A stretch of DNA of 64,000 nt, from positions 9,456-73,455 of the IMG/VR virus record IMGVR_UViG_3300032326_000853; one strand, written 5' to 3'. This DNA is from a virus. The notes beneath the pieces are model-generated. The model searched no databases. It was not told the DNA's origin and was given only the letters and a program-made list of their open reading frames with translations. The position numbers and the translations under genes were made by a program. Of the stretch, positions 5,808 through 62,943 are shown in pieces (the first letter of the stretch is position 1; each line of letters begins with the position of its first letter).

Positions 5808-7328
5808 ATGGAATACATTGTAACAGTTAAAGACCCATTAGTGTGGGATACACTTTGGAGTGAGTTAACAGTCAACGGATTAGGCGACAACTTTATCCCG
5901 GATCGCGCAGTACCTGTAATTAACGAGCGTCCTTTTAATGACTACTCAGCACACTTTGATTTGACCGACGAAGAAGCTGAACAACTGCGCCAGGACTCGC
6001 GTATCGCCGCAGTAGAGCTACAAGCTGATCAACAGCCTGGCGTTGAAAAACGATTCTATGGTCAGCGTCCCGGCAATTACGATCGCAATCCTTATTCAAC
6101 TACAGCGTCAATGAAGAACTGGGGGCTAATGCGTTGCACCCATAGAGACGATCCATATGGTGTCCAAACCAGTCTCAACACCAACTTTAACTACAACTTG
6201 GATGGCACAGGTGTAGATATTATTTTCCTTGATTCAGGAATCGAAGCTGATCATCCAGAGTTTGCTGTTAACCCTGATGGTACAGGCGGTAGCCGTGTAA
6301 TTGATTTTAACTGGCACAGCTTAGGTGTTCCTGGCGTACAACCTTCTTCATATTATGGTGGCTACTTGGGCGACAGCGACGGTCATGGCAGTAACTGTGC
6401 TTCAATTGCCGCAGGAAATACTTGCGGTTGGGCACCAAGCGCCCGCATCTACTCTATTAGAATTTTTGGGGGAAACAGTATTCGTACTGGTCAATATTTG
6501 AACGCTATCCCTTCTGACTTTGCGTTTGATTTAGTTCGTGCATTTCATTTAAAGAAGATTGCCGAAGGCAATACTCGTCCTACAATTTGCTCTAACTCAT
6601 GGGGCTACTATTCTAGCTATTCTGGTATGACGTCAACTACCTATCGTGGACAAACATATCCGACTAGTTCTTTTAACAGCAATTACGGACAAGTAACGTC
6701 TATACATGGTGCTCGAATAACATACGTTGACTCTTCTGTTGAAAACTGTGGGGCCGCCGGTGTTATACTTGTAGGTGCGGCCGGAAACTATCGACACAAA
6801 ATTGATGTACCTGGCGGCATTGACTACAACAACTACTGGTCGGGCTCATGGGGTCAAACTTACTATCACAGGGGCTCAAGTCCAACAGCAACACCTTGCA
6901 TGATCAATGTGGGTGCAACTGACAGCATCTTAACAAATCCACCAATTGAACGTAAGGCTTACTTTAGTGAGACTGGGCCACGAGTTGATGTGTATGCCCC
7001 TGGTACAATGATCATGGGTGCCTATGCCAATAAGCCGTATCAAACCATGGCTGTACCCGATCCACGCAAGGCTGGCTATTACCTTAATAAACTTTCAGGA
7101 ACCAGTATGGCCTGTCCACAGGTGTCAGGCTACATTGCATGTTTGTTACAACTGCGTCCAGGCTCAACAGTCAACAACATCAAGACGTTTATTGCTGAAA
7201 CTAGCAACAAAAACAAATTAGACGAAGGTGCTCTAAGTTGGACTAACTTGTACAGTTTACAAGGTGGTGTTAACAATTACCTTTACACACCGTTTACTAA
7301 TCCAAGTCGTGGTAGCATAACAAGTTAA
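5808..7328 (+). CDS. Subtilisin-like serine protease (peptidase S8)
   Basis: Catalytic triad motifs in order: FLDSGIEADHPEF (Asp), DGHGSNCASIAAG (His), LSGTSMACPQVSGY (Ser). Confidence 0.8.
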   Translation: MEYIVTVKDPLVWDTLWSELTVNGLGDNFIPDRAVPVINERPFNDYSAHFDLTDEEAEQLRQDSRIAAVELQADQQPGVEKRFYGQRPGNYDRNPYSTTASMKNWGLMRCTHRDDPYGVQTSLNTNFNYNLDGTGVDIIFLDSGIEADHPEFAVNPDGTGGSRVIDFNWHSLGVPGVQPSSYYGGYLGDSDGHGSNCASIAAGNTCGWAPSARIYSIRIFGGNSIRTGQYLNAIPSDFAFDLVRAFHLKKIAEGNTRPTICSNSWGYYSSYSGMTSTTYRGQTYPTSSFNSNYGQVTSIHGARITYVDSSVENCGAAGVILVGAAGNYRHKIDVPGGIDYNNYWSGSWGQTYYHRGSSPTATPCMINVGATDSILTNPPIERKAYFSETGPRVDVYAPGTMIMGAYANKPYQTMAVPDPRKAGYYLNKLSGTSMACPQVSGYIACLLQLRPGSTVNNIKTFIAETSNKNKLDEGALSWTNLYSLQGGVNNYLYTPFTNPSRGSITS

Positions 7329-7331
7329 TGT

Positions 7332-8189
7332 TTGCTGGTAAGTACAACGATGACACCTTTGACACCTTACCAGCAACGTTACGGTCTTCCCGTTCCAACT
7401 CCTGAAGCAACAGCCAATGGATTTATAACGAATCTTTTAAAAAGAACTTCGTGTCGTAAGTTCCAGAATAGACCACTTGAACCAGGAGTGCTAGAATTAT
7501 TAATCGCTGCCGCACAAAGCGCACCTACCAGTGGTATGTTGCAAACATGGAGTGTAATTGCATTAACGACTCCCGAAGAAAAAGCCAAGCTGTTCAATTT
7601 TAAGAACAATGATCTAGTCATTGGCAATATTGATAGTCACAACACTGTTGCAATCAATTCATCGTCGGTGACTCTGATCTGGCTTGCTGACTTATCTAGA
7701 TTAGATCTAGTATTAAAAAACGTTGAAGCGTCTGACAAAATAAAAGCACAAGTTACGCGAGCAGAATATCATCTTAAAGCAATAATTGATGCAACTATTG
7801 CGGCACAAACCTTCTTTATGGCTGCAGAGACCATGGGCATCGAAGGTACATACTGTGGAGCAATAAGACAACTTCCAATAGAATTTTTTGAGCGTGAGTT
7901 TAATTTACCAAAGTATACATTTCCAGTATTTGGAACAGTACACGGGTATTCGGATAATGCAAAAACTATTGTTAAACCAAGACTACCATCAGAAATTGTA
8001 CTACATCATGGTACATACAATAAAATGGAAGACCTGAGTCAGCTCGATGAATACAACAAAGTACACACACAGAGATCAAAACCTGATCAAGGCACGTTCG
8101 AAAAGCGAGTAGTTGAAAGATTGAGACCAACTCTAAGTAAAGAAAGTGTAGGTGACGCATTGCGCCACATGGGCTTTGACTTTAAATAA
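7332..8189 (+). CDS. Oxygen-insensitive NADPH nitroreductase, NfsA-like
   Basis: LLKRTSCRKF N-terminal motif. The C-terminal stretch 'LPKYTFPVFGTVHGYSDNAKTIVKPRLPSEIVLHHGTY' aligns with NfsA 'LPQHVLPLFGLCLGWPADNPDLKPRLPASILVHENSY'. Confidence 0.75.
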   Translation: MLVSTTMTPLTPYQQRYGLPVPTPEATANGFITNLLKRTSCRKFQNRPLEPGVLELLIAAAQSAPTSGMLQTWSVIALTTPEEKAKLFNFKNNDLVIGNIDSHNTVAINSSSVTLIWLADLSRLDLVLKNVEASDKIKAQVTRAEYHLKAIIDATIAAQTFFMAAETMGIEGTYCGAIRQLPIEFFEREFNLPKYTFPVFGTVHGYSDNAKTIVKPRLPSEIVLHHGTYNKMEDLSQLDEYNKVHTQRSKPDQGTFEKRVVERLRPTLSKESVGDALRHMGFDFK

Positions 8190-8198
8190 GGAATTATA

Positions 8199-8564
8199 AT
8201 GGAAACGCAAGAACCAAAACACTTCATACGCTTCTGTGTTGAACGAGAATTAACTGATAGCGAATTTGAAGACATGACTGAAATTGTTGACGATGAAATC
8301 GGTGATTTAGTTGCCGCTGACGAAGTATTTGAGCATCCTGGACCAGATGACACAATTTGCTATATGTTTCAATTGACTCGCGACATAGACGTTACAGATG
8401 GTGACATTGTGAGTTATGAAATATCAAACGCCTGGCCCGAATCTTTACAGTGGGAATTGGAAGCAAGTCATTCAGATCTAGACCTAGACGTTGCTGATGA
8501 TGCAACACCCGAGCAGGTTGAAGAAGCTGCCATCAATTACTTTCGCAATATCCTTAAAGGGTAA
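8199..8564 (+). CDS. Hypothetical acidic protein
   Basis: ORF with RBS. Asp/Glu-rich. Confidence 0.35.
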   Translation: METQEPKHFIRFCVERELTDSEFEDMTEIVDDEIGDLVAADEVFEHPGPDDTICYMFQLTRDIDVTDGDIVSYEISNAWPESLQWELEASHSDLDLDVADDATPEQVEEAAINYFRNILKG

Positions 8565-9022
8565 TGAAGTACACGCCTGCATCATTGCGCTTGTTGGGCT
8601 ACACAAGGCGGAGTTCGCACTGGCAAGACTTTGTGACCAAGACCATGGCAACATGGTACAGGTTCAGTCCAGATCACTCTGTTAGCCATTTTGCTTGGGT
8701 CAATAATCCGCACCATAGAAACACACAAGGCACTACCCATGGCGGCGCACTAATGACCTACATGGACTATTGTATGAGCGCACATGTGTGGGACTTGTCA
8801 GGGGGCAAGGCTGCATACACCATGGAGTTAAACAATAGGTTCATTCGTCCTGCACGTATCACACGTTGGCTCTTTGCTGAAGTTCGACACGTTATGGTTG
8901 CAGATGTAATTGAACTAGCAGGCACAGTGAGAGCCAATGATCCAACTGGTATGCTGGTGTTAGAAAGTTTTGGGCGTTTTACTTTGCCAAAAGAGTTAAA
9001 AATCATTGACGACGACGAATAA
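8564..9022 (+). CDS. Hotdog-fold thioesterase (PaaI / 4HBT-like)
   Basis: 'THGGALMTYMDY' matches the HGG motif of PaaI-type thioesterases. Size about 150 aa. Confidence 0.55.
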   Translation: MKYTPASLRLLGYTRRSSHWQDFVTKTMATWYRFSPDHSVSHFAWVNNPHHRNTQGTTHGGALMTYMDYCMSAHVWDLSGGKAAYTMELNNRFIRPARITRWLFAEVRHVMVADVIELAGTVRANDPTGMLVLESFGRFTLPKELKIIDDDE

Positions 9023-9034
9023 GAGTGCTATACT
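9006..9034 (+). promoter_or_regulatory. Sigma70-type promoter TTGACG-17-TATACT (extended TGcTATACT)
   Basis: ttgacg at 9006-9011, 17-bp spacer, tatact at 9029-9034. Upstream of the gene at 9070. Confidence 0.5.
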
Positions 9035-9069
9035 AGTCACATACGCTAACAACAGCAACAAGGAATAAT

Positions 9070-9648
9070 ATGAAAATCAATCTACGCAAGGCCAGTGTGG
9101 TCCAGCAAACAATCTTAGACGAAATCAAGCGCCTAGGTACCGAGAGCAACACTCTCAAAGTGAGTCTATTTGAAACAGACATTGAAGCCAGACTCAACGA
9201 GCAATTGGCTCGGGTCCGTGAGAACCATGGCAAAGCAGGTAGACTGTTGAATGCAAACAAGTTCTTGCGAGCAGTTGTGGCCAAAAAGAACGCCGAAGTT
9301 GGTATCACTGACTACTTGGCTGAAGAAGCAATGTTGGCCAGTGCAGAAGCTCGCTTGAAAGCATTTAGCGAAGCCGAAGTTCGTCCAAACCTAGATGCCT
9401 TAAAGGCCGAAATCGAAAGCCGCAAAGCCAACAGCAACAGCGAACGCATGAGCATTTACGGTCGAGACTACAGCGTTGATGTCAATGTTGTACCTGTAGA
9501 GGCTGTAGAAACAGCCAAGAAAGAGCTCGAAGGCATCCGCAAGCGTCGACGCAAGATCAAGGACGAGATGGTCTCCATCAACGTTCGTACCGAGTTTGAA
9601 GTACCCGAACAGGTAGCACTTGTGCTAACTGAACTTGGGCTAGACTAA
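9070..9648 (+). CDS. Hypothetical coiled-coil protein
   Basis: AAGGAA RBS. Charged alpha-helical composition. Confidence 0.4.
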   Translation: MKINLRKASVVQQTILDEIKRLGTESNTLKVSLFETDIEARLNEQLARVRENHGKAGRLLNANKFLRAVVAKKNAEVGITDYLAEEAMLASAEARLKAFSEAEVRPNLDALKAEIESRKANSNSERMSIYGRDYSVDVNVVPVEAVETAKKELEGIRKRRRKIKDEMVSINVRTEFEVPEQVALVLTELGLD

Positions 9649-9744
9649 GACTGCCACACTTAGTCCAAGGGACCAAGGCGAAAATACATTATCGCGTTTG
9701 CGATAAACAATACTGAATTAGTCTTGAAAACTAACTCAACTAGC

Positions 9745-9797
9745 TTTGCTCAGATATAAAACAATTAAATTGATGTTTGATGATATATCTGAGCAAA
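9745..9797. promoter_or_regulatory. 13-bp perfect inverted repeat (TTTGCTCAGATAT ... ATATCTGAGCAAA) in a 180-bp intergenic region
   Basis: Arms at 9745-9757 and 9785-9797. Also a smaller hairpin TTATCGC/GCGATAA at about 9689-9708. Lies between operons. Confidence 0.5.
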
Positions 9798-9885
9798 AAG
9801 CGTATGTTTGATTTTAGATATTTGACGTTTGCTATTTGACTATTTTCGTTTCCCTTGCTTCGTGGCAATACTAAATATCTGTATG

Positions 9886-11472
9886 GCACAAATTATTATA
9901 TGCGCAGGTATTTCTTTTATAGCAACAATGCGACCCGTGGGTGCGTTTCAAATCGCAGCCGTACTCCGCAAACAAGGATACACTGTACAAGTTATTGACA
10001 ACTGGCCGCACATTGCTAAACGCGGCCCTGAAGTTGTAAAAAAAGTTCTTGATCACTTTACTACAAAAGATACACTATGGATAGGATTCAGTTCCACCTG
10101 GTTTAAAAAACTAGTTGATAGTGAAAAGGGACAACCTTACAGTCTAGCTGGCCAAGCCAGCAGTATGTATAAAAACGTAGACGATTTACTGACCAACACC
10201 TACATCTTTGATGATGCTGAACTAGCAGAGATAAAAGAATCAGTTAGATCTAAAAGTCCCAAGTGCCAATTTGTATTAGGTGGAGGCCGCGCCCCTCTTG
10301 GTAGATTGGTCAGACGACCTGGTTTCATTGACTGCTTTATCGAAGGCTTTGCTGATACCACAGCAGTAGAGTACACAAAATACATTGAGGGCAAGAATCC
10401 GTTTTTGCCCTATGTGAAAAATTCAGACGGCAGTATCAGTATTACACATGACCACAAAGCGTCAAGATTTGATTACAACAATGACAAATTTTCGTGGCAT
10501 GAAAATGATCTAGTGCGTCAGGGCGAAGCACTGCCAATGGAGATTGCACGTGGTTGTATCTTTAACTGTAATTTTTGTGCATATCCCTTAAACGGTCGTA
10601 AGAAGCTGGACTATCTTAAAGACCCTGCAATTATTCGAGCGCAGTTTGAAGAAAACTACGACAGATTCAAAACCACTCACTACTGGCTACTAGACGACAC
10701 ATTCAACGACAGTCCTGAGAAACTTCAAATTTTATATGATGAAGTATTTTCAAAGCTGTCATTTAAAATAAACTTCAATGCATTTATGCGCTTGGACCTT
10801 ATGGCAGCGCATCCGCACACAATTGATCTAATTGCCGCTAGCGGAGCAGGTGGTCTCAGCTTTGGTATTGAAACCTTAAACTACGAAGCAAATAAAAGTA
10901 TTGGTAAGGGTATCACTAAAGAAAAAATTATTGATACACTACACAAGATCAACGCCAAGATGCCGGAAGGATCCTTGATCGATTCTCAATTCATTATTGG
11001 CTTACCTTACGAGACTCCGGACACTGCTAGGGAATGGATCACAGAAGTTACTTCACCTGAGTTCCCTTTAGGCAATGCAAAGATTCATTTGCTTTCAATG
11101 CACCCGTTCAAGGGCCTTGAAAATGTTTGGATCAGTAACTTTGAAAAGTATCCAGAAAAATATGGATACACTTTTCCTAATAAGAATTTCCCATTCTCGT
11201 GGGTCAACAACATGGGATTCTCTGTCAAGCAAGCATTTGACTTGCACACTGAAATGTATGATAAAATCATGTCAAAGGAAATGGATGCATGGTTATCGTA
11301 TGCTGGTTGGCTGAATTTGGGTCTTAGCGAAGAACAGGCCAGAGAGCTGGTTTCTATCAACAAGGCCCGAAGAACCGAAAGCAGTTTGGCGGCCAGCACA
11401 AATGCATTCCATATACACGAAGCTTTTATCGACAACTATATTAATCAATTGTTAAATCTTGATCCTCAATGA
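9886..11472 (+). CDS. B12-binding-domain radical SAM enzyme (paralog of 56501..57991)
   Basis: CxxxCxxC motif 'GCIFNCNFCAYP'. N-terminal region aligns with the paralog (..YTVQVIDNW.. vs ..YNTQVIDHL..). Start chosen at 'MAQIII' by alignment. The ORF track starts earlier, at 9829. Confidence 0.7.
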   Translation, partial: AQIIICAGISFIATMRPVGAFQIAAVLRKQGYTVQVIDNWPHIAKRGPEVVKKVLDHFTTKDTLWIGFSSTWFKKLVDSEKGQPYSLAGQASSMYKNVDDLLTNTYIFDDAELAEIKESVRSKSPKCQFVLGGGRAPLGRLVRRPGFIDCFIEGFADTTAVEYTKYIEGKNPFLPYVKNSDGSISITHDHKASRFDYNNDKFSWHENDLVRQGEALPMEIARGCIFNCNFCAYPLNGRKKLDYLKDPAIIRAQFEENYDRFKTTHYWLLDDTFNDSPEKLQILYDEVFSKLSFKINFNAFMRLDLMAAHPHTIDLIAASGAGGLSFGIETLNYEANKSIGKGITKEKIIDTLHKINAKMPEGSLIDSQFIIGLPYETPDTAREWITEVTSPEFPLGNAKIHLLSMHPFKGLENVWISNFEKYPEKYGYTFPNKNFPFSWVNNMGFSVKQAFDLHTEMYDKIMSKEMDAWLSYAGWLNLGLSEEQARELVSINKARRTESSLAASTNAFHIHEAFIDNYINQLLNLDPQ

Positions 11473-12200
11473 ATGTTTGTTTTGACTTAAACTGTATCAG
11501 CGTTAAATTAACATTACCTGCTGATACTGATTATAAGAATCAACTGTTGATACAAAATGGTTATTTCGGACTATCACAGCACGCCACCAACGATGCCATA
11601 ATCGAAGCAGCCGTTAAAAACTATACCCCAATACTGGAAAGGTCATTAAAATACTTTCCAGACTTGGGTGATGTTACAGTATTAGATATAGGCAGTGGTA
11701 ATTCTATTATAGACCTGGCACTTGCAAAAATCTATCCCAACACTAGATTTATCTTGCTTGACGGCAACGAATGGAATGACAATCCCAATTTGCACAGCAC
11801 ACAGTTTAGACCCTACAACCGTTGGAGTCATGTCAATGACTCTATTAGACTCAATCAATTAGATCCCAGTCGATTTAAATTTGTAGGCTTAGACTATGAT
11901 TTCGGAGATTCAGTGCAGTATGTACTAAGCTATGGTAGTTGCGGATTGCATTATCCAGTCAACACTTATATTAATCAAATTTATAGCGCATTAGATACAA
12001 ACGGAATAATGGCACTTGGACCAATACTCAACGTTGGTTCTCAACTTGAAATCATAAACACCTTGTTTGAACCAATGGAAATTTTAGAAATAAATGGGTT
12101 TGCCAGCAGAGAACGCAATCAAATGTCAATTTGGTCCAAGTATTTCCCCAAAGACTTTGCTGGTCCATTTGCACATGCTGGAGTTTGGCGTAAATTATGA
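11469..12200 (+). CDS. Class I SAM-dependent methyltransferase
   Basis: Motif I 'VLDIGSGNS'. Overlaps the upstream stop (ATGA). Confidence 0.55.
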   Translation: MNVCFDLNCISVKLTLPADTDYKNQLLIQNGYFGLSQHATNDAIIEAAVKNYTPILERSLKYFPDLGDVTVLDIGSGNSIIDLALAKIYPNTRFILLDGNEWNDNPNLHSTQFRPYNRWSHVNDSIRLNQLDPSRFKFVGLDYDFGDSVQYVLSYGSCGLHYPVNTYINQIYSALDTNGIMALGPILNVGSQLEIINTLFEPMEILEINGFASRERNQMSIWSKYFPKDFAGPFAHAGVWRKL

Positions 12201-12363
12201 AAAAGTATTGGAGACTTGTGGCCCTGGCCCTAGGTAAAAAATCTGGCGATTCGGACAAAGAAGCTGACCAAATCGCTTGCATTAGGCTAGCAATTGTGTT
12301 AACATACATTATTACAAACTGTTTCATTGTCGCTGGAGTGATCCGGCATTGGTAGGAGCCAAT

Positions 12364-13377
12364 ATGGGTCGAGTGGGTTTTTGTTGCAAGTGGATAAATG
12401 ATCCTAGTGAAGTAGCTGGCATGAAAGTCAGTGCTGTAGACCGAGATCTAAACGGACGCTCGACTACCATGCGCTGGCTACGTGAGCACAAGGCCGAAGC
12501 CGAACAGCGTCAGTGGGACATTATGAATCACAATGCTCGTGCGGCTCTGCTGTTAGTTGAGCGTGTTGGCACACTACCCGAACATCGTCGTATGGTACGC
12601 CTGGGTTCAGAAATGCTACAAGGCTACACACACGAAGACTGGATTCCGTTTTGGAAGCAACAGGACGTACAAGATCACTGTGCAAAGATCTTTACTCCTG
12701 TAGGTGAAGCCGCACGCCGTTTAGGTGTGCGTTTGAGTTTTCACCCTGGACAGTTTTGTGTACTGGCCAGTGCCAATGAAGGCATTGTAGAGCGCAGTAT
12801 TCTAGAATTTGAATACCATGCTGATCTGGCACGTTGGATGGGCTATGGTAAGAGCTTTCAAGACTTTAAGATCAATGTACACATTTCAGGACAACAAGGA
12901 CCCGAAGGTATTAGGCGAGCATACAATCGGTTGTCACCAGAGGCTCGCAATTGCATAACTATTGAAAATGAAGAAAACTCACACAACCTTGAAACTTGCC
13001 TTGAACTTGCGGACCTTGTTCCAATCGTTCTGGACGTCCATCACCACTGGATCAATTCGGGAGAGTATATCAATCCTGACGATGTACGTGTTCAACGGGT
13101 TATTGACAGTTGGCGTGGTGTCCGCCCTGCTATGCATTACAGTGTTTCTCGCGAAGATGTACTCGTTGATCATGCCCGAGATGCCAGACCAGATATGGCC
13201 AATCTTTTATCGCTAGGCTATAAAAAGCAAAAGCTACGAGCACATTCAGACTTTTACTGGAACACAGCAGTAAATGATTGGGTGGCCACATTTGCTGATA
13301 GCTTTGATATTCAGTGTGAAAGCAAGGGCAAGAATCTTGCCAGTGGTGAATTTGCAAAATTAGTGAGTGGCCACTAA
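12364..13377 (+). CDS. uvdE: UV damage endonuclease UvdE/UVDE family
   Basis: Block matches to Bacillus UvsE: RLSFHPGQF (RTSFHPNQF), INVHISGQQGPEG (INIHIGGAYGNKD), ITIENEE (LENDDKT), VLDVHHHW (VFDFHHFY), AMHYSVS (KVHLSSP). Confidence 0.7.
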   Translation: MGRVGFCCKWINDPSEVAGMKVSAVDRDLNGRSTTMRWLREHKAEAEQRQWDIMNHNARAALLLVERVGTLPEHRRMVRLGSEMLQGYTHEDWIPFWKQQDVQDHCAKIFTPVGEAARRLGVRLSFHPGQFCVLASANEGIVERSILEFEYHADLARWMGYGKSFQDFKINVHISGQQGPEGIRRAYNRLSPEARNCITIENEENSHNLETCLELADLVPIVLDVHHHWINSGEYINPDDVRVQRVIDSWRGVRPAMHYSVSREDVLVDHARDARPDMANLLSLGYKKQKLRAHSDFYWNTAVNDWVATFADSFDIQCESKGKNLASGEFAKLVSGH

Positions 13378-13413
13378 TCTCCTTTAAAACCGTTAAAACG
13401 GGTTACATTGATG

Positions 13414-13442
13414 TTGCACCGCAACATATATAGTGTTATACT
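13414..13442 (+). promoter_or_regulatory. Promoter TTGCAC-17-TATACT with flanking small hairpins
   Basis: ttgcac at 13414-19, tatact at 13437-42. Hairpins gaaacact/agtgtttc and atgttgc/gcaacat nearby. Precedes a strong RBS 'AAAGGAGAAATAAGCATG'. Confidence 0.45.
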
Positions 13443-13528
13443 AGTGAAAACACTGATAGTGTTTCTACTAGTGATAGTGCTCATTAGAGGCTATCAAAAA
13501 CTCGCTTAACATTAAAGGAGAAATAAGC

Positions 13529-13753
13529 ATGTTCACAGAAATCACAAAAACTTTCGAAGCAAACCAAAAACTGGCCAAGGAATTGACCGCACAGTTGACA
13601 ACCGCTTCAACAGAATTCACAAAAACAATCGTAGACGTTAACACACGTTTAGCAGAAACTTTCAAAACACAAGCCGCAGAAGCTTACAAGAACTTAGAAG
13701 CATTTAAAGTTCCTGGTTTTGATGCATACACTGCAAAGTCAAGCAAGAAGTAA
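13529..13753 (+). CDS. Small helical protein (phasin/histone-like composition), probably highly expressed
   Basis: Strong SD AAAGGAG. Ala/Lys/Glu/Thr-rich, 74 aa. Confidence 0.45.
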   Translation: MFTEITKTFEANQKLAKELTAQLTTASTEFTKTIVDVNTRLAETFKTQAAEAYKNLEAFKVPGFDAYTAKSSKK

Positions 13754-14035
13754 TATCATGTGGGCTAGAATCAAAAAATTCTTTGCCTCTATGACTCGCC
13801 AGTCCTCCATGGACTGGTGGGAAGAGCAATACCTAAACGCGGCACAAAATGTCGCTGATTTAGAGTATCGCCAAAGACAACTCTCACAAGGGTTTTCTAG
13901 ATCAAAGGGATATTAAAATGAAAACATTTTTAAATGCAGTATGGGAAGTTTTGACTGAAATTGGTCGTACCAGAGCTGCCATTGCGGCAGCACGAGCCGG
14001 GCAATTTGATATAGCCAAAGCATTAATGAAATAAT

Positions 14036-17294: not shown

Positions 17295-17491
17295 TTTTAG
17301 TAAAGAACCCACCTTAGGGCCGTTTGTCGCTACGGAAAAAGGCGTCCGCGCAATTGAACTGCACCGCGTAGTGTGCGCCGTATAAAGTAAGCGGCACCTA
17401 CTAAACTACCACTAAAGTGCTATACTAACAAAAAGTATAGTTCATAAATTACTATGAGCAACATTAGTTGCAATTTTAAATTAGGTAATTT

Positions 17492-18412: not shown

Positions 18413-18562
18413 AATGTGCCCCAATTATACCAGTGTTTTAAACAACATATAAACGGCTAAATATTGGGCAAACTACAGGGAGTTTCTCTGTAGTTAAGCT
18501 AAATATATACGAGCCGAATGCTCACAACTTAGCTGAATGCTAATAAAAAGGAAATTTTTGTC

Positions 18563-19507: not shown

Positions 19508-19523
19508 TTTTTAAGTAAGTTAA

Positions 19524-19552
19524 GGGTACAACTTCGGTTGTACCCTTTTTTC
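19524..19552 (+). terminator. Rho-independent terminator (GGGTACAAC-TTCG-GTTGTACCC-TTTTTT)
   Basis: Perfect 9-bp stem, 4-nt loop, T6 tail directly after the stop at 19507. Confidence 0.8.
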
Positions 19553-19572
19553 TTGGCCGCTTAAATAGGCGT

Positions 19573-19891: not shown

Positions 19892-19923
19892 ATGCTTATC
19901 GTGACTAACATTCGAGGTCCAAG

Positions 19924-48623: not shown

Positions 48624-49034
48624 GTGTTATATTTTGCATATGGTATGAATACCAATAGTAGCGTTATGAGCAAGACCAGCCGCAGACTAGGTCCAGCAAC
48701 CTTATTGGGTTATAAATGGGAAATGCTACAGTTTGCCAATGTGTTTGAATCTAAAGGCTGCACTGCCGTAGGCATATTATGGGACATTGATGAGACGGAG
48801 TTGCAGGACTTGGATTATCGCGAAGGCTATCCTTCATTTTACGATCGCGTTAGTGCCACAGTGGAACACCAAGGTGAACAAAAGAAAGCCTGGGTATACT
48901 ACATGACTCCGCACTATAGAACCAAGCTGTCTGATTGTGAGCCAAGCCCACATTATGCTCAAATGGTCACTGAGGGCTTTGCTCAGGATGGTTTAAGTGT
49001 TGCTAATCTTACTGCACACAAGAGTTTGATATAA
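48624..49034 (+). CDS. Gamma-glutamyl cyclotransferase-like (GGCT/AIG2 fold) protein
   Basis: N-terminal 'LYFAYGMNT' (YFAYGSNL hallmark), 'GILWDIDETELQDLDYREG', 'AWVYY'. Confidence 0.6.
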   Translation: MLYFAYGMNTNSSVMSKTSRRLGPATLLGYKWEMLQFANVFESKGCTAVGILWDIDETELQDLDYREGYPSFYDRVSATVEHQGEQKKAWVYYMTPHYRTKLSDCEPSPHYAQMVTEGFAQDGLSVANLTAHKSLI

Positions 49035-49690
49035 AGCCAGCCTATATCAAATTCAAACCAACGACGACTTAGTCGAGGGTTAGCAGGATCCAAATGATGG
49101 TTATTATGAAGGCATTCGCCACCAATAATAATACCCCAAGGACTAATGTTTCTACTGTTATCTTTAGTTTGGCCATTACGATATCCCCACCAGTGACCCA
49201 AGCCGTTGATGACTCCAGCGGCCCAGAATGGTATCCATATCATTTGAATACCCCATATTAATAAGCCCGGCAAGCCAAACACCACCAGGTCTATCAATAA
49301 CATAAGCATAATACCCAAGCGGCTGTGTCGAGTATATAAATTTTGTTCAATCCAGTCGTTTGGAGTACCAACGCCGTATTGTGCAACCATCTCTGCATCT
49401 TTACTGGCACTGTGATATAGTCCTGCTCCACGAAGTAGCACACGTTTTAATCCGTATACCTGTGGACTGTGTGGGTCTCCGGGTTGTTCTGTAAATCTAT
49501 GATGCTTGCGGTGTATGGCTACCCATTGCCGAGTGACCATGCCTGTTGTTAACCATAACCAAAAGCGCATGAAGTGTGCCACAACAGGATTAAATGTGAC
49601 GCCTCTGTGCGCTTGACTGCGGTGTAGATAAAGTGTAACACACGCAATGGTAATGTGTGTTAGTATAAGAGTTGCTATTAATGTTGTCAT
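48983..49690 (-). CDS. Delta-9 acyl-lipid/acyl-CoA fatty acid desaturase
   Basis: Three His boxes: 'LHRSQAH', 'WVAIHRKHHRFTEQPGDPHSP' (cf. DesC 'WVGLHRIHHKFSDTPHDPH'), 'HNNHHLDP'. Confidence 0.75.
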   Translation of the reverse strand: MTTLIATLILTHITIACVTLYLHRSQAHRGVTFNPVVAHFMRFWLWLTTGMVTRQWVAIHRKHHRFTEQPGDPHSPQVYGLKRVLLRGAGLYHSASKDAEMVAQYGVGTPNDWIEQNLYTRHSRLGIMLMLLIDLVVFGLPGLLIWGIQMIWIPFWAAGVINGLGHWWGYRNGQTKDNSRNISPWGIIIGGECLHNNHHLDPANPRLSRRWFEFDIGWLYIKLLCAVRLATLKPS

Positions 49691-56500: not shown

Positions 56501-57991
56501 ATGGATGTAATACTTTTAAACAGTGGGCCCGAAGATCTTGGTCGAATTTCGCCTTATAGAACCTTGGGCGCATATAAAATTGCACACTACACAAGGTCTG
56601 CAGGCTACAATACTCAGGTAATAGATCATTTGATGTTCTTATCCGAGGACCAGCTGCGTGCCTGTTTGCTAAAATTTGTTACTAATGAAACCTTGGTAAT
56701 TGGCGTTAGCACAACTTTCATGAGAGACCCTTCCCGTCCCTTTAATGAACCCTCGCTGCCTGCACATGTTATTACTGTATTAAACGAAATCACTGATCAA
56801 TTTCCCAATATCAAATTGGTTTTTGGCGGTTACGGTACGTATTTGGTCACAAGTACAAGAAGCACTGACTTTATAAAGAATCCATATGCTGTTGTTCAGG
56901 AGTACGGCGAAGATACTTTTGTTGATATCCTGAATCATTTAAGCGGCACAGGTGATGAGCCTCCTTGGGTCATTGCCAAAGTAACACCCGGTGGTCCTTA
57001 TAAAAAGATGATCAAGCAATACACAGGTCCTGTTGCTGTGAGATTTAATATTGAAACTGATGCATTTCAATTTACTGCACAAGATGCAGTTATGCCCAAC
57101 GAAACTTTACCAATTGAAATCAGCAGAGGTTGTATCTTTAAATGCAAATTTTGCAACCATTTATTGTTGGGACGAGGCAAACTTGACTACCTAAGAGATT
57201 TTGAATTGGTGCGCAACGAATTGATCAACAATTACGAACGCTGGGGCACTACCAATTACTATGTCATATGTGACACATTCAATGACACAGAATATAAAAT
57301 GAAAGAATGGCACAAAATGGTCACAGCATTGCCATTCAAGATAAATTGGACTTCGTATTTGCGAGCTGACTTATTGAATAGATTTGAAGACGTACCTTAT
57401 ATGCTGGCCGAGACTGGGTTATTTTCATGCTTTCACGGCATTGAAAGTTTCGGCGAAAAAGCATCTGTTACAATTGGCAAAGGCTGGAGTGGCAAAAGCG
57501 CCCGAGAATTCCTACCAAAATTGTATCACGACATTTGGAAAAAAGAAGTATTTCAGACCTTGAGTTTTATTGTGGGCTTGCCAGGGGACACGGCCGAAAG
57601 CATACTTGACACTGGTAGATGGTTCAACAGTAATAAAATGTACAACATTGCTTGGCATACCCTGGGTATCATGCCCAACAGTCCTAGACATGCCAGCGAA
57701 TTTGAGCGCAACGCTGAAAGCTATGGCTACACATTTACTGAAAACAATAAATGGAAAAATGAACACTGGACCATGGACACGGCTGCAGAGTTTGTTAAGA
57801 CAAAATTAGGCCCGTTAAACGGTCCCAATAATGCCAAGCACGGCAGCTGGAAAATCATGCAGTTGAAGCAATTTGGGTACACACGATCTAATTTTCAAAA
57901 GGAAAACAACATATTTTGGAACATAGCCGACCAATATCAGCGGGGACAAGTGTTTATTGATCAATACGTGACTAAATTACTTGCACTTTAA
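56501..57991 (+). CDS. B12-binding-domain radical SAM enzyme (paralog of 9886..11472)
   Basis: 'GCIFKCKFCNH' CxxxCxxC. Collinear similarity with 9886..11472 throughout, e.g. 'YYVICDTFND' vs 'YWLLDDTFND' and 'SFIVGLPGDT' vs 'QFIIGLPYET'. Confidence 0.7.
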   Translation: MDVILLNSGPEDLGRISPYRTLGAYKIAHYTRSAGYNTQVIDHLMFLSEDQLRACLLKFVTNETLVIGVSTTFMRDPSRPFNEPSLPAHVITVLNEITDQFPNIKLVFGGYGTYLVTSTRSTDFIKNPYAVVQEYGEDTFVDILNHLSGTGDEPPWVIAKVTPGGPYKKMIKQYTGPVAVRFNIETDAFQFTAQDAVMPNETLPIEISRGCIFKCKFCNHLLLGRGKLDYLRDFELVRNELINNYERWGTTNYYVICDTFNDTEYKMKEWHKMVTALPFKINWTSYLRADLLNRFEDVPYMLAETGLFSCFHGIESFGEKASVTIGKGWSGKSAREFLPKLYHDIWKKEVFQTLSFIVGLPGDTAESILDTGRWFNSNKMYNIAWHTLGIMPNSPRHASEFERNAESYGYTFTENNKWKNEHWTMDTAAEFVKTKLGPLNGPNNAKHGSWKIMQLKQFGYTRSNFQKENNIFWNIADQYQRGQVFIDQYVTKLLAL

Positions 57992-58018: not shown

Positions 58019-59464
58019 ATGAAATTTACAGACCTAGGGGACAAGGGCCCAAATATTAAACTGGCTTTTGTTAAAGAAGCCAAGTTAAATGAATTTGCAC
58101 CTGGTGGCGGGGATGACCGCGAGCCCAATGAAGAAGAAATCTTGCGTCAATTGGCCGCACAATGGTGGAATGGCACAGAACAACAAATGGCCAAAGCACA
58201 ACGTACATTAGAAACAATGGGTTGGGAAATTGGACAAGATGAATCCGGTGATGACGATGCAGGTGTATTCTTAATACGCCCAGGTGATGTAAATGGTGAC
58301 ACATACATTGCATTTAACCACAGTGATTTAGATTTAAACGAAGGCTGGAAAGATAAGTTGGCAGCGGCTGCGTTAGCTGGAACAATGGCCCTAGGTGCCG
58401 CAGGCGCACAAGCCAGAGTTTCACCTGGTGACGATCCCAGTATCAATCGTTTAAATGGCAAACCTGTTGCTACACAAGTTGCGCCGGCTGCATCACAGGC
58501 TGTGCAACCTGGTGCTTCATTACCAGGTAAAAATCTACAAGCAGTTGATAACATAGAAGGAAACAAGGCCAATGGTTATACCATCACACAAGATGGCAAT
58601 TCCTATGATGTTAAGGTAGTGCCAAAAGGTTCTCCTACTCCCAGGGGCGGCAAAATGATGAAGGTAACTCAAGCACAAGTTGGCGAGCGCGGCATTGGAA
58701 ATTATGTAGTATATTTGCTAAACAATGGGACTGCATATCTTTATATGGGCGAAAGCGTAAATGAAGCTTCACCGCGAGTTGATTCGCTTGTAACCGACGC
58801 ACTAAAAATAATGCAGGGTTCAAGTGTAAATGATGCTGTGGCCGCACTAAAGACTGTGCTGGGCAATAGAGAATACAACAGCCGTCGTGGACATTATAAT
58901 TTCTATGTCAAGCAATTGGTTGATATGTCAGGACAGCAAGGCATGGCGGAAGCACGTGACGGCGAGGACTTTGAGCCAGCATTGTCGGGCTTGAAAAAAG
59001 AGTTTGACAAGTTCGCAAACAGTGATCGCGCAAATCGAGATGTCGCTGACAGTGACATTGACGATGAGGATGTTGCTAACGACATGGGTCAAGACAGCGG
59101 CGATGACTTAGATGAAGCAACATTGGCACAAATGCGTGACTACTTTAATCAACCAGACGACTCGATGAAAGTAAACCGTGCGCCAGGCGCACCGGGAAAG
59201 CCTGCCGCAGGTATCCCACACGAAATACAAGCCTTGGTCAACAAGATGTATCATTCAGGAAAAGTTACACCGCAAGAGTTTGAAATTTTAAGAAAGTTTC
59301 AACAGAAAACAAAAATCAATGTGGGCATTAAAGAAGCTGATAAAAATCCCTATGCCATAGGTATGGCACAGGCCATGAAAAGCACAGGCGATAAACCGCC
59401 ATTAAAGAAAAGCACTATCAACAAGGCGCATGAAATCGCCCGTGCTGTTAAAAAAGGTGAATAA
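58019..59464 (+). CDS. Hypothetical protein with 'KLNEFAPGGGDD' motif and internal Ala/Gly-rich signal-like segment
   Basis: 'KLAAAALAGTMALGAAGAQARVSPGDD'. Acidic C-terminal region. Confidence 0.5.
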   Translation: MKFTDLGDKGPNIKLAFVKEAKLNEFAPGGGDDREPNEEEILRQLAAQWWNGTEQQMAKAQRTLETMGWEIGQDESGDDDAGVFLIRPGDVNGDTYIAFNHSDLDLNEGWKDKLAAAALAGTMALGAAGAQARVSPGDDPSINRLNGKPVATQVAPAASQAVQPGASLPGKNLQAVDNIEGNKANGYTITQDGNSYDVKVVPKGSPTPRGGKMMKVTQAQVGERGIGNYVVYLLNNGTAYLYMGESVNEASPRVDSLVTDALKIMQGSSVNDAVAALKTVLGNREYNSRRGHYNFYVKQLVDMSGQQGMAEARDGEDFEPALSGLKKEFDKFANSDRANRDVADSDIDDEDVANDMGQDSGDDLDEATLAQMRDYFNQPDDSMKVNRAPGAPGKPAAGIPHEIQALVNKMYHSGKVTPQEFEILRKFQQKTKINVGIKEADKNPYAIGMAQAMKSTGDKPPLKKSTINKAHEIARAVKKGE

Positions 59465-59476: not shown

Positions 59477-60124
59477 GTGATTAAATTAACGCTTGAACAC
59501 TTACAGGCATGCTTGCCCGAAGCAAAAAAAGCAAACTTAGAAAAGTTTGTAGAAGGTTTAAATGAAACATTTGAGCACTTTGAAATTGACACGCCTAAAC
59601 GCATGGCCATGTTTATTGCACAAACTGCTCATGAGTCTGGCAACTTTGCAGCCACACAAGAAAACTTAAACTATTCAGCCAAGGGCTTGAGTGGTACATT
59701 TAAAAAGTATTTCCCCACAGAAGAGTCTGCTACTGCTTATGCACGTAAGCCAGAAAAGATTGCCAACAAGGTTTATGGTTCACGCATGGGCAATGGAGCC
59801 GAATCATCTGGTGATGGTTACAAGTATCGTGGTCGCGGTGTTATTCAATTAACTGGCAAAGACAACTACACTGCTTGCGGCAAGGCTCTAGGCATGGATT
59901 TATTAGCAGATCCCGATTCCGTAGCAGAAAATCCAGTTGCAGTACTAAGTGCTGGTTGGTTCTGGAACACACGTAGACTAAATGACTGGGCCGACAAAGG
60001 TGACGTATTAACTGTTACTAAAAAAATCAACGGTGGTACAATTGGTCTAGCTGATCGCAAAAAGCACTACGAGCACATTTTAGAAGTGCTTGAAGATATT
60101 GAGGGCGAAAGCGAAAGCGAATAA
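59477..60124 (+). CDS. GH19-family endolysin (lysozyme/chitinase-like), compact form
   Basis: 'MFIAQTAHESGNF', 'YRGRGVIQLTGKDNY', 'GWFWNTRRLNDWAD'. Confidence 0.75.
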   Translation: MIKLTLEHLQACLPEAKKANLEKFVEGLNETFEHFEIDTPKRMAMFIAQTAHESGNFAATQENLNYSAKGLSGTFKKYFPTEESATAYARKPEKIANKVYGSRMGNGAESSGDGYKYRGRGVIQLTGKDNYTACGKALGMDLLADPDSVAENPVAVLSAGWFWNTRRLNDWADKGDVLTVTKKINGGTIGLADRKKHYEHILEVLEDIEGESESE

Positions 60125-60221: not shown

Positions 60222-61496
60222 ATGAAAGAAATGATCTGGTACTGTGACCACAAGAATGATAATCCATTTGAATTACACAGCTACCTGCAACAATTTATTA
60301 CTAACGACACTGACAATATAGATCATTTTACAGTTCAGCCCTCTATTGATTTGACTATACTGCCTGAATTTGCTTCAAAAATCACAGTTCGAACATTTCC
60401 CGACTACAAAAACAATTCCAATGGTGCTGTTGTAATTGGACTACACGGTGGATGGGATCCGGTTAAACTTAAATTAATCACTGAGTGGTTTACATCAGAT
60501 CGACACAGGCTTCGTGCCTGGCAGGATCATACTTGTCGCATTGTACTTGACTACAGCATGGAAGGCTTTGGCGAAGAAGCATTTGGCGACTTGTACAATT
60601 GGAGTTGTACTCATGGCCTGCAAGATAGGCTTGTTTATGTAAGCGGGGACTTGAACATCAAAGACAACTATTGGGCATGGTGTGCTCAACATCGTGTTGG
60701 GCCTGCAATGACTGTGACCTATTATGGGTACTTTGCAGTATGGGCCAGCAGACAATTAAGAGTCACAGCACAAACCACAAGACGTCGTCGTTACATGAGT
60801 TTGAATCGTCGGCCACATTATCATCGCATCATGATGATGACCATATTAGAACGCAGAGGCTTGATCGAACATGGCACTATCAGTATGCCACGTGATTTTG
60901 TGGAACCTGACATTGGGTGGGCCGCAGATCAATGGGACCTGCGTAGATTATGGGACGAGTTAAAAGACCTGCAGGTGGGCTTTTTGGATCGTTACGAATC
61001 AGCATTTCAATCCTTGCACAGCAAACTACCGCTAATAGCCGACAGAACAGACTTTGAAACCAATCATGCACTAGACTTTAATACGGACCTATACCGCGAA
61101 CATCCTATTAACTTAGTCACAGAAACCCTGTGCTTTACCACTAGTGCATTTGCGTCGGAAAAGATCTGGAAGCCCATGGCTGCGGGACAAATATTTTTAG
61201 TACTCAGTGGCCCTTATTACTTACGTGGTTTAAAGCGCATTGGTTTCCGCACATTTGCCCCATATATAAATGAAGAATACGATGAAGAAACAGAACCAAT
61301 TGCTCGGGCTAATTTGGTAGCTCGTGAATTAAAACGTCTGATAAGTATCACAGACGAGGAATTTGAAGCAGTCTTGGCTCAATGTCAAGAAGTGATTAGA
61401 CATAATCAACAGTTGGTTACAGATCAAAATCAAATCAAAGCAACAGTTGCTCGTGACTTAGTACGCACATTAGAAGGTAAACGTGGAACCAATTAA
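60222..61496 (+). CDS. Putative glycosyltransferase, GT10 (alpha-1,3-fucosyltransferase)-like C-terminal motif
   Basis: 'LCFTTSAFASEKIWKPMAAGQIFLVLSGP' parallels GT10 'FYLAFENS...ITEKLW..A..AGSVPVVLGP'. Confidence 0.35.
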   Translation: MKEMIWYCDHKNDNPFELHSYLQQFITNDTDNIDHFTVQPSIDLTILPEFASKITVRTFPDYKNNSNGAVVIGLHGGWDPVKLKLITEWFTSDRHRLRAWQDHTCRIVLDYSMEGFGEEAFGDLYNWSCTHGLQDRLVYVSGDLNIKDNYWAWCAQHRVGPAMTVTYYGYFAVWASRQLRVTAQTTRRRRYMSLNRRPHYHRIMMMTILERRGLIEHGTISMPRDFVEPDIGWAADQWDLRRLWDELKDLQVGFLDRYESAFQSLHSKLPLIADRTDFETNHALDFNTDLYREHPINLVTETLCFTTSAFASEKIWKPMAAGQIFLVLSGPYYLRGLKRIGFRTFAPYINEEYDEETEPIARANLVARELKRLISITDEEFEAVLAQCQEVIRHNQQLVTDQNQIKATVARDLVRTLEGKRGTN

Positions 61497-62943
61497 AATT
61501 CATTTAAACAGAGTCAAACAACAACTGGATGAGGTCAGCGGCTCATACTGTGTGGCCAAATGGCAGCAAGTAACAATCCATCTTGCAACAGGCCAAACTC
61601 ACAGTTGCCATCACCCAGCCACACATCGTATTCCTTTAGAAGAGATTGCTGTCAATCCTACTGCGTTACACAATACCAAATTCAAGAAAGAACAGCGTCG
61701 AAAGATGTTGGCTGGTGAGCGTCCACCTGAATGTGATTACTGCTGGAAGGCTGAAGACTCGCCTGGACATCACTACAGCGACCGTGTGCATAAAAGTGCA
61801 GATCCTGTGTGGGGACAGCCATACTTGAAAGAGTCAGCACGGATGCCCTGGGACGCTGATGTTACACCTGCTTATGTAGAAGTATCATTCAGCAATGTGT
61901 GCAACTTTGGTTGTGCATATTGCAGTCCAGATATCAGTAGTACTATCATGCAAGAAGCCAAACGCTTTGGCCCCGTTAAACTAGACGGTGGTCGTTTTGA
62001 TCGTGACATTATCAAGTTGGAGCAACAGGGCCGCATGCCTATTCCCAACAGAGAACAAAATCCCTATATTGATGCATTTTGGGCCTGGTGGCCTACCCTG
62101 TACCCCAAGTTAAAAGTATTCCGCATCACTGGTGGCGAACCCCTGTTGGCCAAGGACACATTCAAGGTATTAGATTGGATCATTGCTCATCCCAACCCCG
62201 AACTGGATCTTGCTATCAATTCAAACTTGGGAGTAGATGAAAAACTACTAGACGAGTTTTTGGAAAAAGCCAACTACATTCAAGAAAACAATTTAGTAAA
62301 AAGCCTAAAGATCTTTACCAGCTGTGACACATGGGGCAAGCAAGCAGAATATATTCGCACTGGTTTAAATTATAATCAATGGTATCGCACACTATGGGAT
62401 ATTACACTACGTTATCCTGCGTTGAGTATCAGTGTCATGGTCACATTTAATTTGTTGAGCATTCCACGTTTTGAATCATTCCTACGTGACATGTTGACAA
62501 TACGTCAATCGCCTTCAGTGGTAGTTAACAATTCTGGCATGCGTGGAGTTGGCTTAGACTTTCCGTATCTGCGTCATCCGCGTTATTTGAGTACCTTGAT
62601 TGCTGATCCCTATATGATGGTATTGCTTGATCGTTCCATTCAGTTCATGCGTCGGAATACAGCTACCTTTCAACAAGTGGATTATCATGACGGTTTTTAT
62701 CCACACGAAATAGAAAACTTACAGCGTGTGTACAACATTGCGTCAGCTGAATGGCAAGGCAGTTTACAAAGTCAGATAAGTAGACGTGACTTTTATTTGT
62801 ACATCACTGAACATGATCGACGAAATGAAACTGACTTTAAAACAGTGTTTCCGGAAATTGGTTATTTTTACGATCAGTGTCGACGAGAATATGAAGAATC
62901 ACAGGCTGCTAGAGAAGCGGCTGAAAATAAAGACAAAGAATAA
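61483..62943 (+). CDS. Radical SAM domain protein (third in window)
   Basis: 'SNVCNFGCAYCSP' CxxxCxxC. About 480 aa. Confidence 0.55.
   Translation: MEPIKIHLNRVKQQLDEVSGSYCVAKWQQVTIHLATGQTHSCHHPATHRIPLEEIAVNPTALHNTKFKKEQRRKMLAGERPPECDYCWKAEDSPGHHYSDRVHKSADPVWGQPYLKESARMPWDADVTPAYVEVSFSNVCNFGCAYCSPDISSTIMQEAKRFGPVKLDGGRFDRDIIKLEQQGRMPIPNREQNPYIDAFWAWWPTLYPKLKVFRITGGEPLLAKDTFKVLDWIIAHPNPELDLAINSNLGVDEKLLDEFLEKANYIQENNLVKSLKIFTSCDTWGKQAEYIRTGLNYNQWYRTLWDITLRYPALSISVMVTFNLLSIPRFESFLRDMLTIRQSPSVVVNNSGMRGVGLDFPYLRHPRYLSTLIADPYMMVLLDRSIQFMRRNTATFQQVDYHDGFYPHEIENLQRVYNIASAEWQGSLQSQISRRDFYLYITEHDRRNETDFKTVFPEIGYFYDQCRREYEESQAAREAAENKDKE

Follow-up and report, generated by a model that had tools for sequence, protein, structure and literature searches.

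Two class-B-like radical SAM genes and a methyltransferase-fold gene vary as exact single-gene units in a viral DNA stretch that also holds a UvdE backbone gene and a UDP-sugar dehydrogenase module

Introduction

Marine T4-like phage genomes carry up to 12 radical S-adenosylmethionine (SAM) enzyme genes (rSAM genes; PMC5332604), and in the 'host recognition clusters' of pelagimyophages and cyanomyophages rSAM cassettes differ between otherwise similar genomes and lie, linked to tail fibres, with curli genes and with lipopolysaccharide (LPS) genes that include UDP-glucose 6-dehydrogenase (PMC7029224). Both studies noted the rSAM genes and assigned no function to them. Here we analyse 64,000 nucleotides of viral DNA, positions 9,456 to 73,455 of the IMG/VR record IMGVR_UViG_3300032326_000853 (the window, in whose own numbering all coordinates are given), which hold three rSAM genes. 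Two of these, rSAM1 and rSAM2, encode enzymes with a predicted architecture of the class B, or cobalamin (B12), type, and the third encodes an enzyme with an N-terminal twitch domain. The window shares with the host recognition clusters a tail-fibre-linked variable region as well as LPS/UDP-glucose dehydrogenase, curli, solute-binding and rSAM genes, but its lineage appears larger, and related IMG/VR contigs reach 320-367 kb. New relative to the two earlier studies are the cassette boundaries, the class-B fold, the size of the families and two sets of neighbours, which are worked out below.

Among the solved class B enzymes, TsrM (6wte), MgmA (9ccb) and OxsB (5ul4) share their domain order with rSAM1 and match its predicted fold over the full length (E 1e-15 to 1e-14). 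They are, however, only 12-14% identical to it, the C-terminal domain of rSAM1 is its own and its clade is mostly viral. The best family model is that of PhpK (TIGR04479), yet scores against this and every other family model are 5-10 fold below the cutoffs. The third enzyme of the window belongs with the NF033640 twitch rSAMs, which show distant MoaA-like similarity, and has their N-terminal conserved cysteines and rSAM motif; the phage enzyme differs in being tightly linked to a UDP-sugar dehydrogenase and two unassigned families, and no NF033640 member appears to have been characterised. Finally, the UV-damage endonuclease gene of the window, UvdE, encodes a member of the same TIM-barrel family as the UVDE enzymes of Thermus (2j6v) and Sulfolobus (3tc3), with conserved metal-ligand positions, but the residue aligned with the carboxylated lysine of the Thermus enzyme is an alanine.

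Results and discussion

Genes of the slot beside UvdE are exchanged one by one

A non-coding region (9649..9882, + strand) is followed on the same strand by rSAM1 (9883..11472), a gene for a 243-residue methyltransferase-fold protein (11469..12200), a 52-residue open reading frame (ORF; 12197..12355) and UvdE (12364..13377). Comparison with relatives, designated by L-numbers and scored for presence or absence on loci no longer than about 20 kb each, revealed a shared backbone order of S8 peptidase, nitroreductase, 121-residue protein, 4HBT thioesterase, 191/192-residue protein, variable slot, 52-residue gene, UvdE and GNAT acetyltransferase. The slot holds rSAM1 and the methyltransferase-fold gene in the window, rSAM1 alone (76% identical) in L009, and the methyltransferase-fold gene alone in L092/L093 and L094/L095. 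Nucleotide alignments of the slot stop exactly at the gene boundaries, and all slot junctions in the window and its relatives are ATGA start/stop overlaps. Moreover, the upstream sequence is common whichever gene stands first, as 9649-9882 aligns at 70-78% to L009, L092 and L094, up to about 10-13 nucleotides before the first ATG. The 52-residue gene, which has no family match and overlaps the preceding gene by ATGA, and UvdE are present in all slot variants compared; the former is kept in L009 (83%) and L011 (73%) and is called upstream of UvdE in L092-L094. In L011 an rSAM1 homolog lies on the opposite side of UvdE. Thus, the region beside UvdE is a hot spot at which single genes are gained and lost, and the unit of rSAM1, methyltransferase and UvdE that an earlier sequence-only reading of the window had drawn comes apart in L009 and L092-L095, which always keep UvdE. 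A scan of the + strand of 9649-9882 found no consensus sigma-70 promoter and did not exceed the shuffled expectation.

The UvdE product is a 337-residue TIM-barrel protein that matches Pfam PF03851 with 105 bits against a cutoff of 24 (E 5e-30) and phrog_8420 (4e-73), in agreement with the call of a UV-damage endonuclease made from the letters alone. It also aligns to the solved structures 3tc3 and 2j6v (1e-16), including the H/H/E/D/H/H metal-ligand positions, and scores below the NCBIfam equivalog cutoff of TIGR00629 (96.7 versus 124.45). In the alignment to Thermus UVDE, the ligands numbered H101, H143, E175, D200, H203 and H231 are identical. A tblastn search gave homologs in 118 cultured phage records, the majority from phages of Erwinia, Aeromonas, Vibrio and Dickeya; among the matches listed, the genomes measure 254-267 kb and identities are 44-46%. 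UvdE has already been described in jumbo phages (PMC7824862), and the gene is not rare in viruses, contrary to the sequence-only reading. Within 50,697 cultured phage records, neither megablast with 9000-14000 nor tblastn with rSAM1 gave a match. Because UvdE is present in all slot variants and in 118 cultured phage records, where rSAM1 has no homolog, it is a backbone repair gene; enzymes of the UvdE family are UV- or lesion-repair endonucleases.

The 243-residue protein had been called a class I methyltransferase, and its AlphaFold2 (AF2) model bears this out at the level of fold. With the model (predicted local distance difference test, pLDDT, 79.5), Foldseek returned 619 PDB matches at E<=1e-3, and all 50 of the 50 matches listed are class I methyltransferase-fold proteins. 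All 12 homologs aligned share the motif I sequence LDIGxGNS and the acidic D98 at the end of beta-2 without variation. With 12 clusters the family is small, and the protein has no significant match in the Pfam, NCBIfam or PHROGs hidden Markov model (HMM) libraries. We assign it to the class I SAM-dependent methyltransferase fold as a prediction that does not imply activity. A seemingly similar pair in LR797824.1, in which a 243-residue gene lies directly upstream of an rSAM homolog, is a coincidence of length, as that gene is not homologous to the one in the window by tblastn.

rSAM2 is optional and the sugar module is separate from it

At the 3' end, rSAM2 (56501..57991, +; 496 residues) stands between a 1392-residue coiled-coil, low-complexity protein (52251-56429) and a low-complexity backbone protein of 481 residues (58019..59464, +) with no family match. 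Relatives of this region were found through the 481-residue protein, which has relatives in 54 IMG/VR loci on contigs of up to 360 kb. L179 has the layout of the window including rSAM2 (87% identity). By contrast, rSAM2 is absent from L177, L178, L230 and L180, and the genes that would flank it abut. In L177, a homolog of the 1392-residue protein is followed directly by homologs of the 481-residue protein, a GH19 protein, a glycosyltransferase (GT)-like gene, the twitch rSAM, a dehydrogenase fusion, a 370-residue protein, a Methyltransf_24 protein, an NMO-family protein and a cupin protein. All four loci that lack rSAM2 keep homologs of the twitch rSAM, the dehydrogenase and the cupin-cytidylyltransferase; L177, L178 and L230 also retain a full-length GT-like gene and homologs of the remaining block, while in L180 the GT-like gene is a weak, short match only and the dehydrogenase is unfused. 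Thus, rSAM1, rSAM2 and the 243-residue methyltransferase-fold gene are each present or absent as an exact single-gene unit between close relatives. The flanking proteins also differ in L177, the 1392-residue protein being only 919 residues long (7017-9776 of that locus) and the 481-residue protein being reduced to a 204-residue homolog of its C-terminus; these differences indicate that the backbone genes vary strongly in length, in frame.

In the window, the 481-residue protein is followed on the + strand by a GH19 (chitinase class I/lysozyme-like) protein that is probably a lysin (59477..60124; Pfam Glyco_hydro_19, 2e-15). A second GH19 domain forms the C-terminus of a 407-residue protein (33232-34455). 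The next gene (60222..61496, +) encodes a 424-residue protein that had been read as fucosyltransferase-like. That call found no backing, as neither the protein nor a set of 38 family members matched Pfam, NCBIfam or PDB sequences, and the protein had no match in PHROGs or PADLOC. The family numbers 5895 representatives at E<=1e-3. The C-terminal half of the protein is paralogous to the C-terminal domain of the neighbouring dehydrogenase fusion (E 4e-15), and because this domain is fused to a dehydrogenase and the family is present in 38 of 80 twitch loci (see below), the 424-residue protein may be tied to nucleotide sugars, as a putative nucleotide-sugar transferase. The third rSAM, the twitch enzyme (61483..62943, +), was confirmed as such by NF033640 (300.2 bits against a cutoff of 170, over profile positions 3-397 of 398), and its C84/C87 and C140/C144/C147 are invariant. 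The UDP-glucose dehydrogenase predicted at the 3' end is likewise present. It starts at 62946 on the + strand and runs off the window at 64000, and its full sequence was taken from contig L008, which is identical to the window; several metagenome assemblies carry exact copies of the region. The complete protein is a putative 783-residue UDP-glucose/GDP-mannose dehydrogenase fusion in which the N-terminal (UDPG_MGDP_dh_N; 4e-17, 62.7 bits) and central (3e-15, 56.3 bits) domains pass their Pfam cutoffs; no C-terminal PF03720 match was reported by Pfam, and a GT-like domain stands there instead. Past the window, L008 encodes a 370-residue protein, a Methyltransf_24-like protein, an NMO-family protein on the other strand and a cytidylyltransferase fused to a mannose-6-phosphate-isomerase/cupin domain, so that further nucleotide-sugar genes do lie beyond 64 kb. 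Hence the 3' sugar cluster of the sequence-only reading stands for the dehydrogenase, the twitch rSAM and the GT-like gene, which recur together, and does not extend to rSAM2.

rSAM1 and rSAM2 have a predicted class-B-like architecture

The motif CxxxCxxC occurs in exactly three ORF products of the window, as CIFNCNFC in rSAM1, CIFKCKFC in rSAM2 and CNFGCAYC in the twitch enzyme. All three match Pfam Radical_SAM (E 4e-14, 8e-8 and 5e-4, respectively), which agrees with the three rSAM proteins counted in the sequence-only reading; its start for rSAM2 was also correct, while the ATG of rSAM1 is at 9883 and not at 9886. The PF04055 cutoff is passed by rSAM1 with 53.5 bits and by rSAM2 with 33.1 bits. 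rSAM1 (529 residues) and its distant paralog rSAM2 are 29% identical over about 450 residues (E 8e-49, 163 bits). Since rSAM2 matches the copies of other phages better than it matches rSAM1 (L065, 39% identity and 281 bits; L087, 34% and 287 bits), the two genes were probably acquired separately.

The concern that the rSAMs might lack the three-cysteine cluster on careful alignment, or fall into a well-characterised family, was not borne out. In an alignment of 25 rSAM1 homologs C225, C229 and C232 are invariant, and no other cysteine is invariant or nearly so. The MiaB/RimO methylthiotransferases were considered because of the fold matches and set aside, as the three N-terminal auxiliary-cluster cysteines are missing from the same alignment. 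The best NCBIfam matches of rSAM1 and rSAM2 are cobalamin-type families, namely PhpK, the ladderane lipid rSAM, BzaD, HpnJ, HpnR and BchE. The top one, TIGR04479, gives 62.8 bits for rSAM1 and 77.8 bits for rSAM2 against a cutoff of 600, and neither enzyme reaches the cutoff of any characterised B12-rSAM family in NCBIfam. PHROGs returned nothing for rSAM1, rSAM2, the 243-residue methyltransferase-fold protein or the 424-residue protein. The AF2 model of rSAM1 (pLDDT 87; predicted template modelling score, pTM, 0.88) contains a five-stranded alpha/beta N-terminal domain, and among its full-length PDB fold matches TsrM is the best (E 1e-15, TM 0.55-0.61), with MgmA and OxsB among the top ones. 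Collectively, the model and the alignments support a class-B architecture for rSAM1 and rSAM2, with a predicted N-terminal Rossmann/B12-binding-like domain and an rSAM core, and no auxiliary-cluster cysteines. PADLOC gave weak generic rSAM similarity only (PDC-M51A, 33 bits; pVip, 19 bits), and a defence or anti-defence system is thus unsupported.

Two recurring neighbourhoods and the families behind them

To describe the surroundings of the two enzyme types, neighbours were counted in 80 IMG/VR loci chosen for a B12-type rSAM and in a separate 80 chosen for a twitch rSAM. A family designated c7 occurs in 57 of the 80 twitch loci versus 12 of the 80 B12-rSAM loci, the UDP-sugar dehydrogenase in 41 versus 6, the 424-residue GT-like family in 38 versus 3 and a dTDP-glucose-dehydratase-like family in 16 versus 8. 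The reverse holds for fatty-acid (FA)-desaturase-like proteins (1 versus 21), Asp/Asn beta-hydroxylase-like (Asp_Arg_Hydrox-like) proteins (1 versus 26) and the PP-loop-motif family c4, which has no Pfam match (0 versus 17). The B12-type rSAM itself, the anchor of its own set, is found in two twitch loci, both as weak matches. Further recurrent neighbours of the B12-type rSAMs are other PP-loop-motif families (of which only c11 has a Pfam match, to QueC), PhyH, TauD and other 2-oxoglutarate (2OG) oxygenases, and more rSAMs; twitch-like rSAMs are present in 29 loci of the 80 in the B12 set, and many of these rSAMs share only about 18% identity with the twitch enzyme of the window. There are thus two separate recurring neighbourhoods, and the window holds pieces of both. 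Its GT-like protein, twitch rSAM and dehydrogenase fusion belong to a module of their own, which recurs widely and is independent of the B12-type rSAMs. Family c7 is absent from the window, and its profile found nothing among the PDB sequences.

The desaturase-like gene of the window (48983..49690, - strand) encodes a membrane di-iron protein (Pfam FA_desaturase, 2.5e-17) and lies 7 kb from rSAM2. Homologs 72-79% identical are found in six related loci; L177, L178 and L230 have none, though the flanking genes are conserved, and tblastn against the cultured phage records gave no match. The desaturase-like gene may be another optional single gene.

Both rSAM families are large, with at least 591 protein clusters (E<=1e-5) and more than 351 IMG/VR loci for the B12 type and at least 497 IMG/VR relatives for the twitch type, and both are missing, or all but missing, from cultured phages. 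In UniProt, homologs of the B12-type rSAM are entered as unnamed proteins from 'uncultured Caudovirales phage', and one NCBI record is labelled 'BchE'. Cellular homologs are at most about 33% identical and come from many Bdellovibrionota metagenome-assembled genomes (MAGs), Halomonas sulfidaeris, in which the context is uninformative, and Enhygromyxa salina. In E. salina SWB007 (L121, 7659-12142) a 27% identical homolog lies beside a DUF3050/haem-oxygenase-like di-iron protein and an asparagine-synthase-family protein, a context loosely reminiscent of the di-iron enzymes and PP-loop-motif proteins that accompany the viral rSAMs. Two apparently bacterial loci, L099 (JBDNIA010000282.1, 'Crocinitomicaceae' MAG) and L100 (PBPT01000016.1, 'Neomarinimicrobiota' MAG, 335 kb), carry genes 100% identical to IMG/VR phage loci and are very likely phage contigs misbinned into bacterial MAGs. 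L029 (4545-13000) holds four B12-type rSAM paralogs within about 9 kb and other loci hold tandem desaturase-like or PP-loop-motif pairs, indicating that these families expanded by local duplication.

Interpretation of the locus

Taken as a whole, the account that we favour, and judge probable though well short of certain, is that the window belongs to a region of a large aquatic tailed phage that is hypervariable and rich in accessory genes, with independent single-gene cassettes beside a backbone UvdE gene and with a sugar module separate from them. Each cassette would then act alone or with host factors and not as a step of a local pathway. A B12-type rSAM would bind cobalamin and, by means of a 5'-deoxyadenosyl radical and methylcobalamin, might methylate an unactivated carbon or carry out a related radical reaction on a component of the host cell or the virion. 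Judged by the usual neighbours of the family (desaturase-like, Asp/Asn beta-hydroxylase-like, PhyH/TauD and PP-loop-motif proteins), the target would sooner be a membrane lipid or a protein or peptide residue than DNA or a nucleotide sugar. The 3' module, with the downstream cytidylyltransferase-cupin and methyltransferase proteins, probably builds or decorates a uronic-acid-containing glycan.

Several observations weigh against this account. A cassette that is missing from one locus could lie elsewhere in that genome. The rSAM1, methyltransferase-fold, 52-residue and UvdE genes are overlapped at their starts and stops and probably co-expressed, and the third arrangement of an rSAM1 homolog beside UvdE, in L011, leaves room for a loose functional link between the two. 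The class-B assignment has its own difficulties. The rSAM1 model also matches MiaB and the non-B12 enzyme AprD4, which has a similar N-terminal domain, well, and CysS too. Of the two clear B12-binding-domain paralogs named in the sequence-only reading, the homology and, by the fold model, the architecture hold, but the Pfam B12-binding domain (PF02310) is below threshold in rSAM1 (20.3 versus 32.1 bits, E 5e-4) and undetected by Pfam in rSAM2; its cutoff is passed by about 12 of 120 family members among those listed. Moreover, no neighbour family is universal, and a cytidylyltransferase-cupin gene lies directly upstream of the B12-rSAM in L073 and L034; both points make any assignment of a substrate class tentative.

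The alternatives differ in which genes they join. The sequence-only reading had linked the B12-type rSAMs, the methyltransferase, the twitch rSAM, the GT-like protein and the dehydrogenase in one pathway that would make a C-methylated or uronic sugar, or a hypermodified base, for DNA, the virion or the host envelope. Nucleotide-sugar genes are present, and AprD4, which acts on a sugar, is among the fold matches of rSAM1. The class-B or B12-like rSAMs GenK and Fom3 act on sugars in known pathways. A cytidylyltransferase-cupin homolog is found in 6 of the 80 B12-rSAM loci, including the two in which it is directly upstream, and the dehydrogenase is found in as many. On the other hand, rSAM2 is missing from four relatives with a largely intact sugar block, the twitch loci combine weak B12-rSAM matches in two cases with the dehydrogenase in 41 and the GT-like family in 38, and rSAM1, itself optional, is separated from the sugar genes by 45 kb. 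The window shows no DNA-modification gene and nothing in it points to DNA hypermodification. We consider a single pathway of this kind improbable. A DNA-directed operon of rSAM1, the methyltransferase, the 52-residue protein and UvdE, for example one in which a base is modified and the nuclease recognises modified or unmodified DNA, appears very improbable. UvdE is found without rSAM1 in L092-L095 and in the 118 cultured phage records, whereas the same collection has no rSAM homolog; about 72 of the 80 rSAM loci lack a UvdE gene within 10 kb, and the conserved canonical metal-ligand positions fit ordinary repair. These points stand against the common strand and ATGA overlaps of the four genes, the adjacency of an rSAM1 homolog and UvdE in the window, L009 and L011, in differing orders, and the presence of UvdE within 4-7 kb of an rSAM in L032, L033, L040 and L050.

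Two further explanations concern the substrate of the B12-type rSAMs. These enzymes might remodel lipids, methylating, cyclising or desaturating host acyl or isoprenoid chains together with the flanking desaturase-like and LpxO-like hydroxylase proteins. Here the FA_desaturase-like family is the commonest immediate upstream neighbour, with 12 same-strand copies that directly adjoin a B12-type rSAM in the 80 loci, and the pairing recurs in the Bdellovibrionota MAG loci L101, L116 and L119. The ladderane lipid B12-rSAM is the second-best NCBIfam match of both rSAM1 and rSAM2, HpnJ and HpnR match as well, and archaeal B12-rSAM lipid methylases and desaturases are known (bioRxiv 10.1101/2025.10.20.683597). 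However, the desaturase-like gene of the window adjoins neither rSAM, the desaturase occurs with no rSAM detected in the same locus in L183, L195, L197, L198, L208 and L212, and the lipid-family HMM scores are all far below cutoff; lipid remodelling seems rather unlikely to us. C-methylation of a protein or peptide, such as collagen-like or tail-fibre proteins or a product like the ribosomally synthesized and post-translationally modified peptides (RiPPs), acting with Asp/Asn beta-hydroxylase-like, 2OG-oxygenase and AsnB-like/PP-loop-motif proteins, we regard as unlikely. It would accord with MgmA, the glutamine C-methylase of methyl-coenzyme M reductase, being the best PDB sequence-profile match and the fifth-ranked fold match, with the position of such islands next to tail-fibre and collagen genes (PMC7029224), with the Asp_Arg_Hydrox-like genes in 26 of 80 loci and with the asparagine-synthase-like and DUF3050 genes beside the Enhygromyxa salina homolog. 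No precursor peptide or conserved target was identified, the NCBIfam RiPP rSAM models score very low, and the cassette is optional whereas the fibre genes are conserved.

With independent cassettes and a separate sugar module as the preferred account, it is possible, as a tentative extension, that the B12-rSAM islands form a viral toolkit for radical and oxidative tailoring, by which infecting phages would place unusual modifications such as C-methylation of unactivated carbons on host membrane lipids or on virion or host proteins, and that, independently, the twitch rSAM, the UDP-sugar dehydrogenase and two unassigned families perform radical chemistry on a uronic-acid nucleotide sugar in building a glycan specified by the phage. 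Each of these would represent phage auxiliary metabolism of a new type. The enzyme families are large in aquatic phages, and the two neighbourhoods provide concrete partner sets, an oxidative tailoring island and a nucleotide-sugar module. In addition, natural variants that are isogenic but for one exact gene permit comparative experiments. The locus is of value mainly as a way into two viral enzyme families that are very large and unstudied, and it illustrates that in the hypervariable region of a phage neither adjacency nor an overlap of start and stop codons is evidence of a shared pathway.

Other genes of the window

The G+C content of the window is about 0.43 and nearly all of its genes are on the + strand. 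Collagen-like and tail-fibre-like genes lie at its start, upstream of the slot. The 192-residue protein immediately before the slot (9070-9648) has a weak PADLOC match to a TIR-type 'Effector' (E 3e-4, 17.9 bits) that is probably not meaningful. Downstream of UvdE, 16383-21592 encodes three periplasmic solute-binding-like proteins (two TctC-like, both weak, and one DctP) and a TauD-family dioxygenase; between the window and L009, the DctP gene shows 99% identity and its neighbours about 80%. Two neighbouring proteins of about 240 residues (23670-25101) contain sigma-70 region 4/GerE-type helix-turn-helix domains and are possibly phage sigma-like or transcription factors. Curli-assembly-like genes are found at 37252-38623, and their 303-residue CsgG-like product (37712-38623) matches phrog_20175 (2e-77) and is 45-49% identical to the 'curli production assembly/transport component' of Pelagibacter phage HTVC008M and Methylophilales Melnitz phages. 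They are followed by genes for a FecR-domain protein (39574-40680), an F5/8 type C (discoidin) domain protein (40677-42590) and an Amidoligase_2 protein (42618-44612). Finally, a 678-residue protein (45930-47966) combines a CHASE2 sensor domain (2e-41) with an adenylate/guanylate cyclase domain (1e-19); it looks like a phage-encoded nucleotide cyclase signalling protein and is conserved at 90-92% in L177, L178 and L230.

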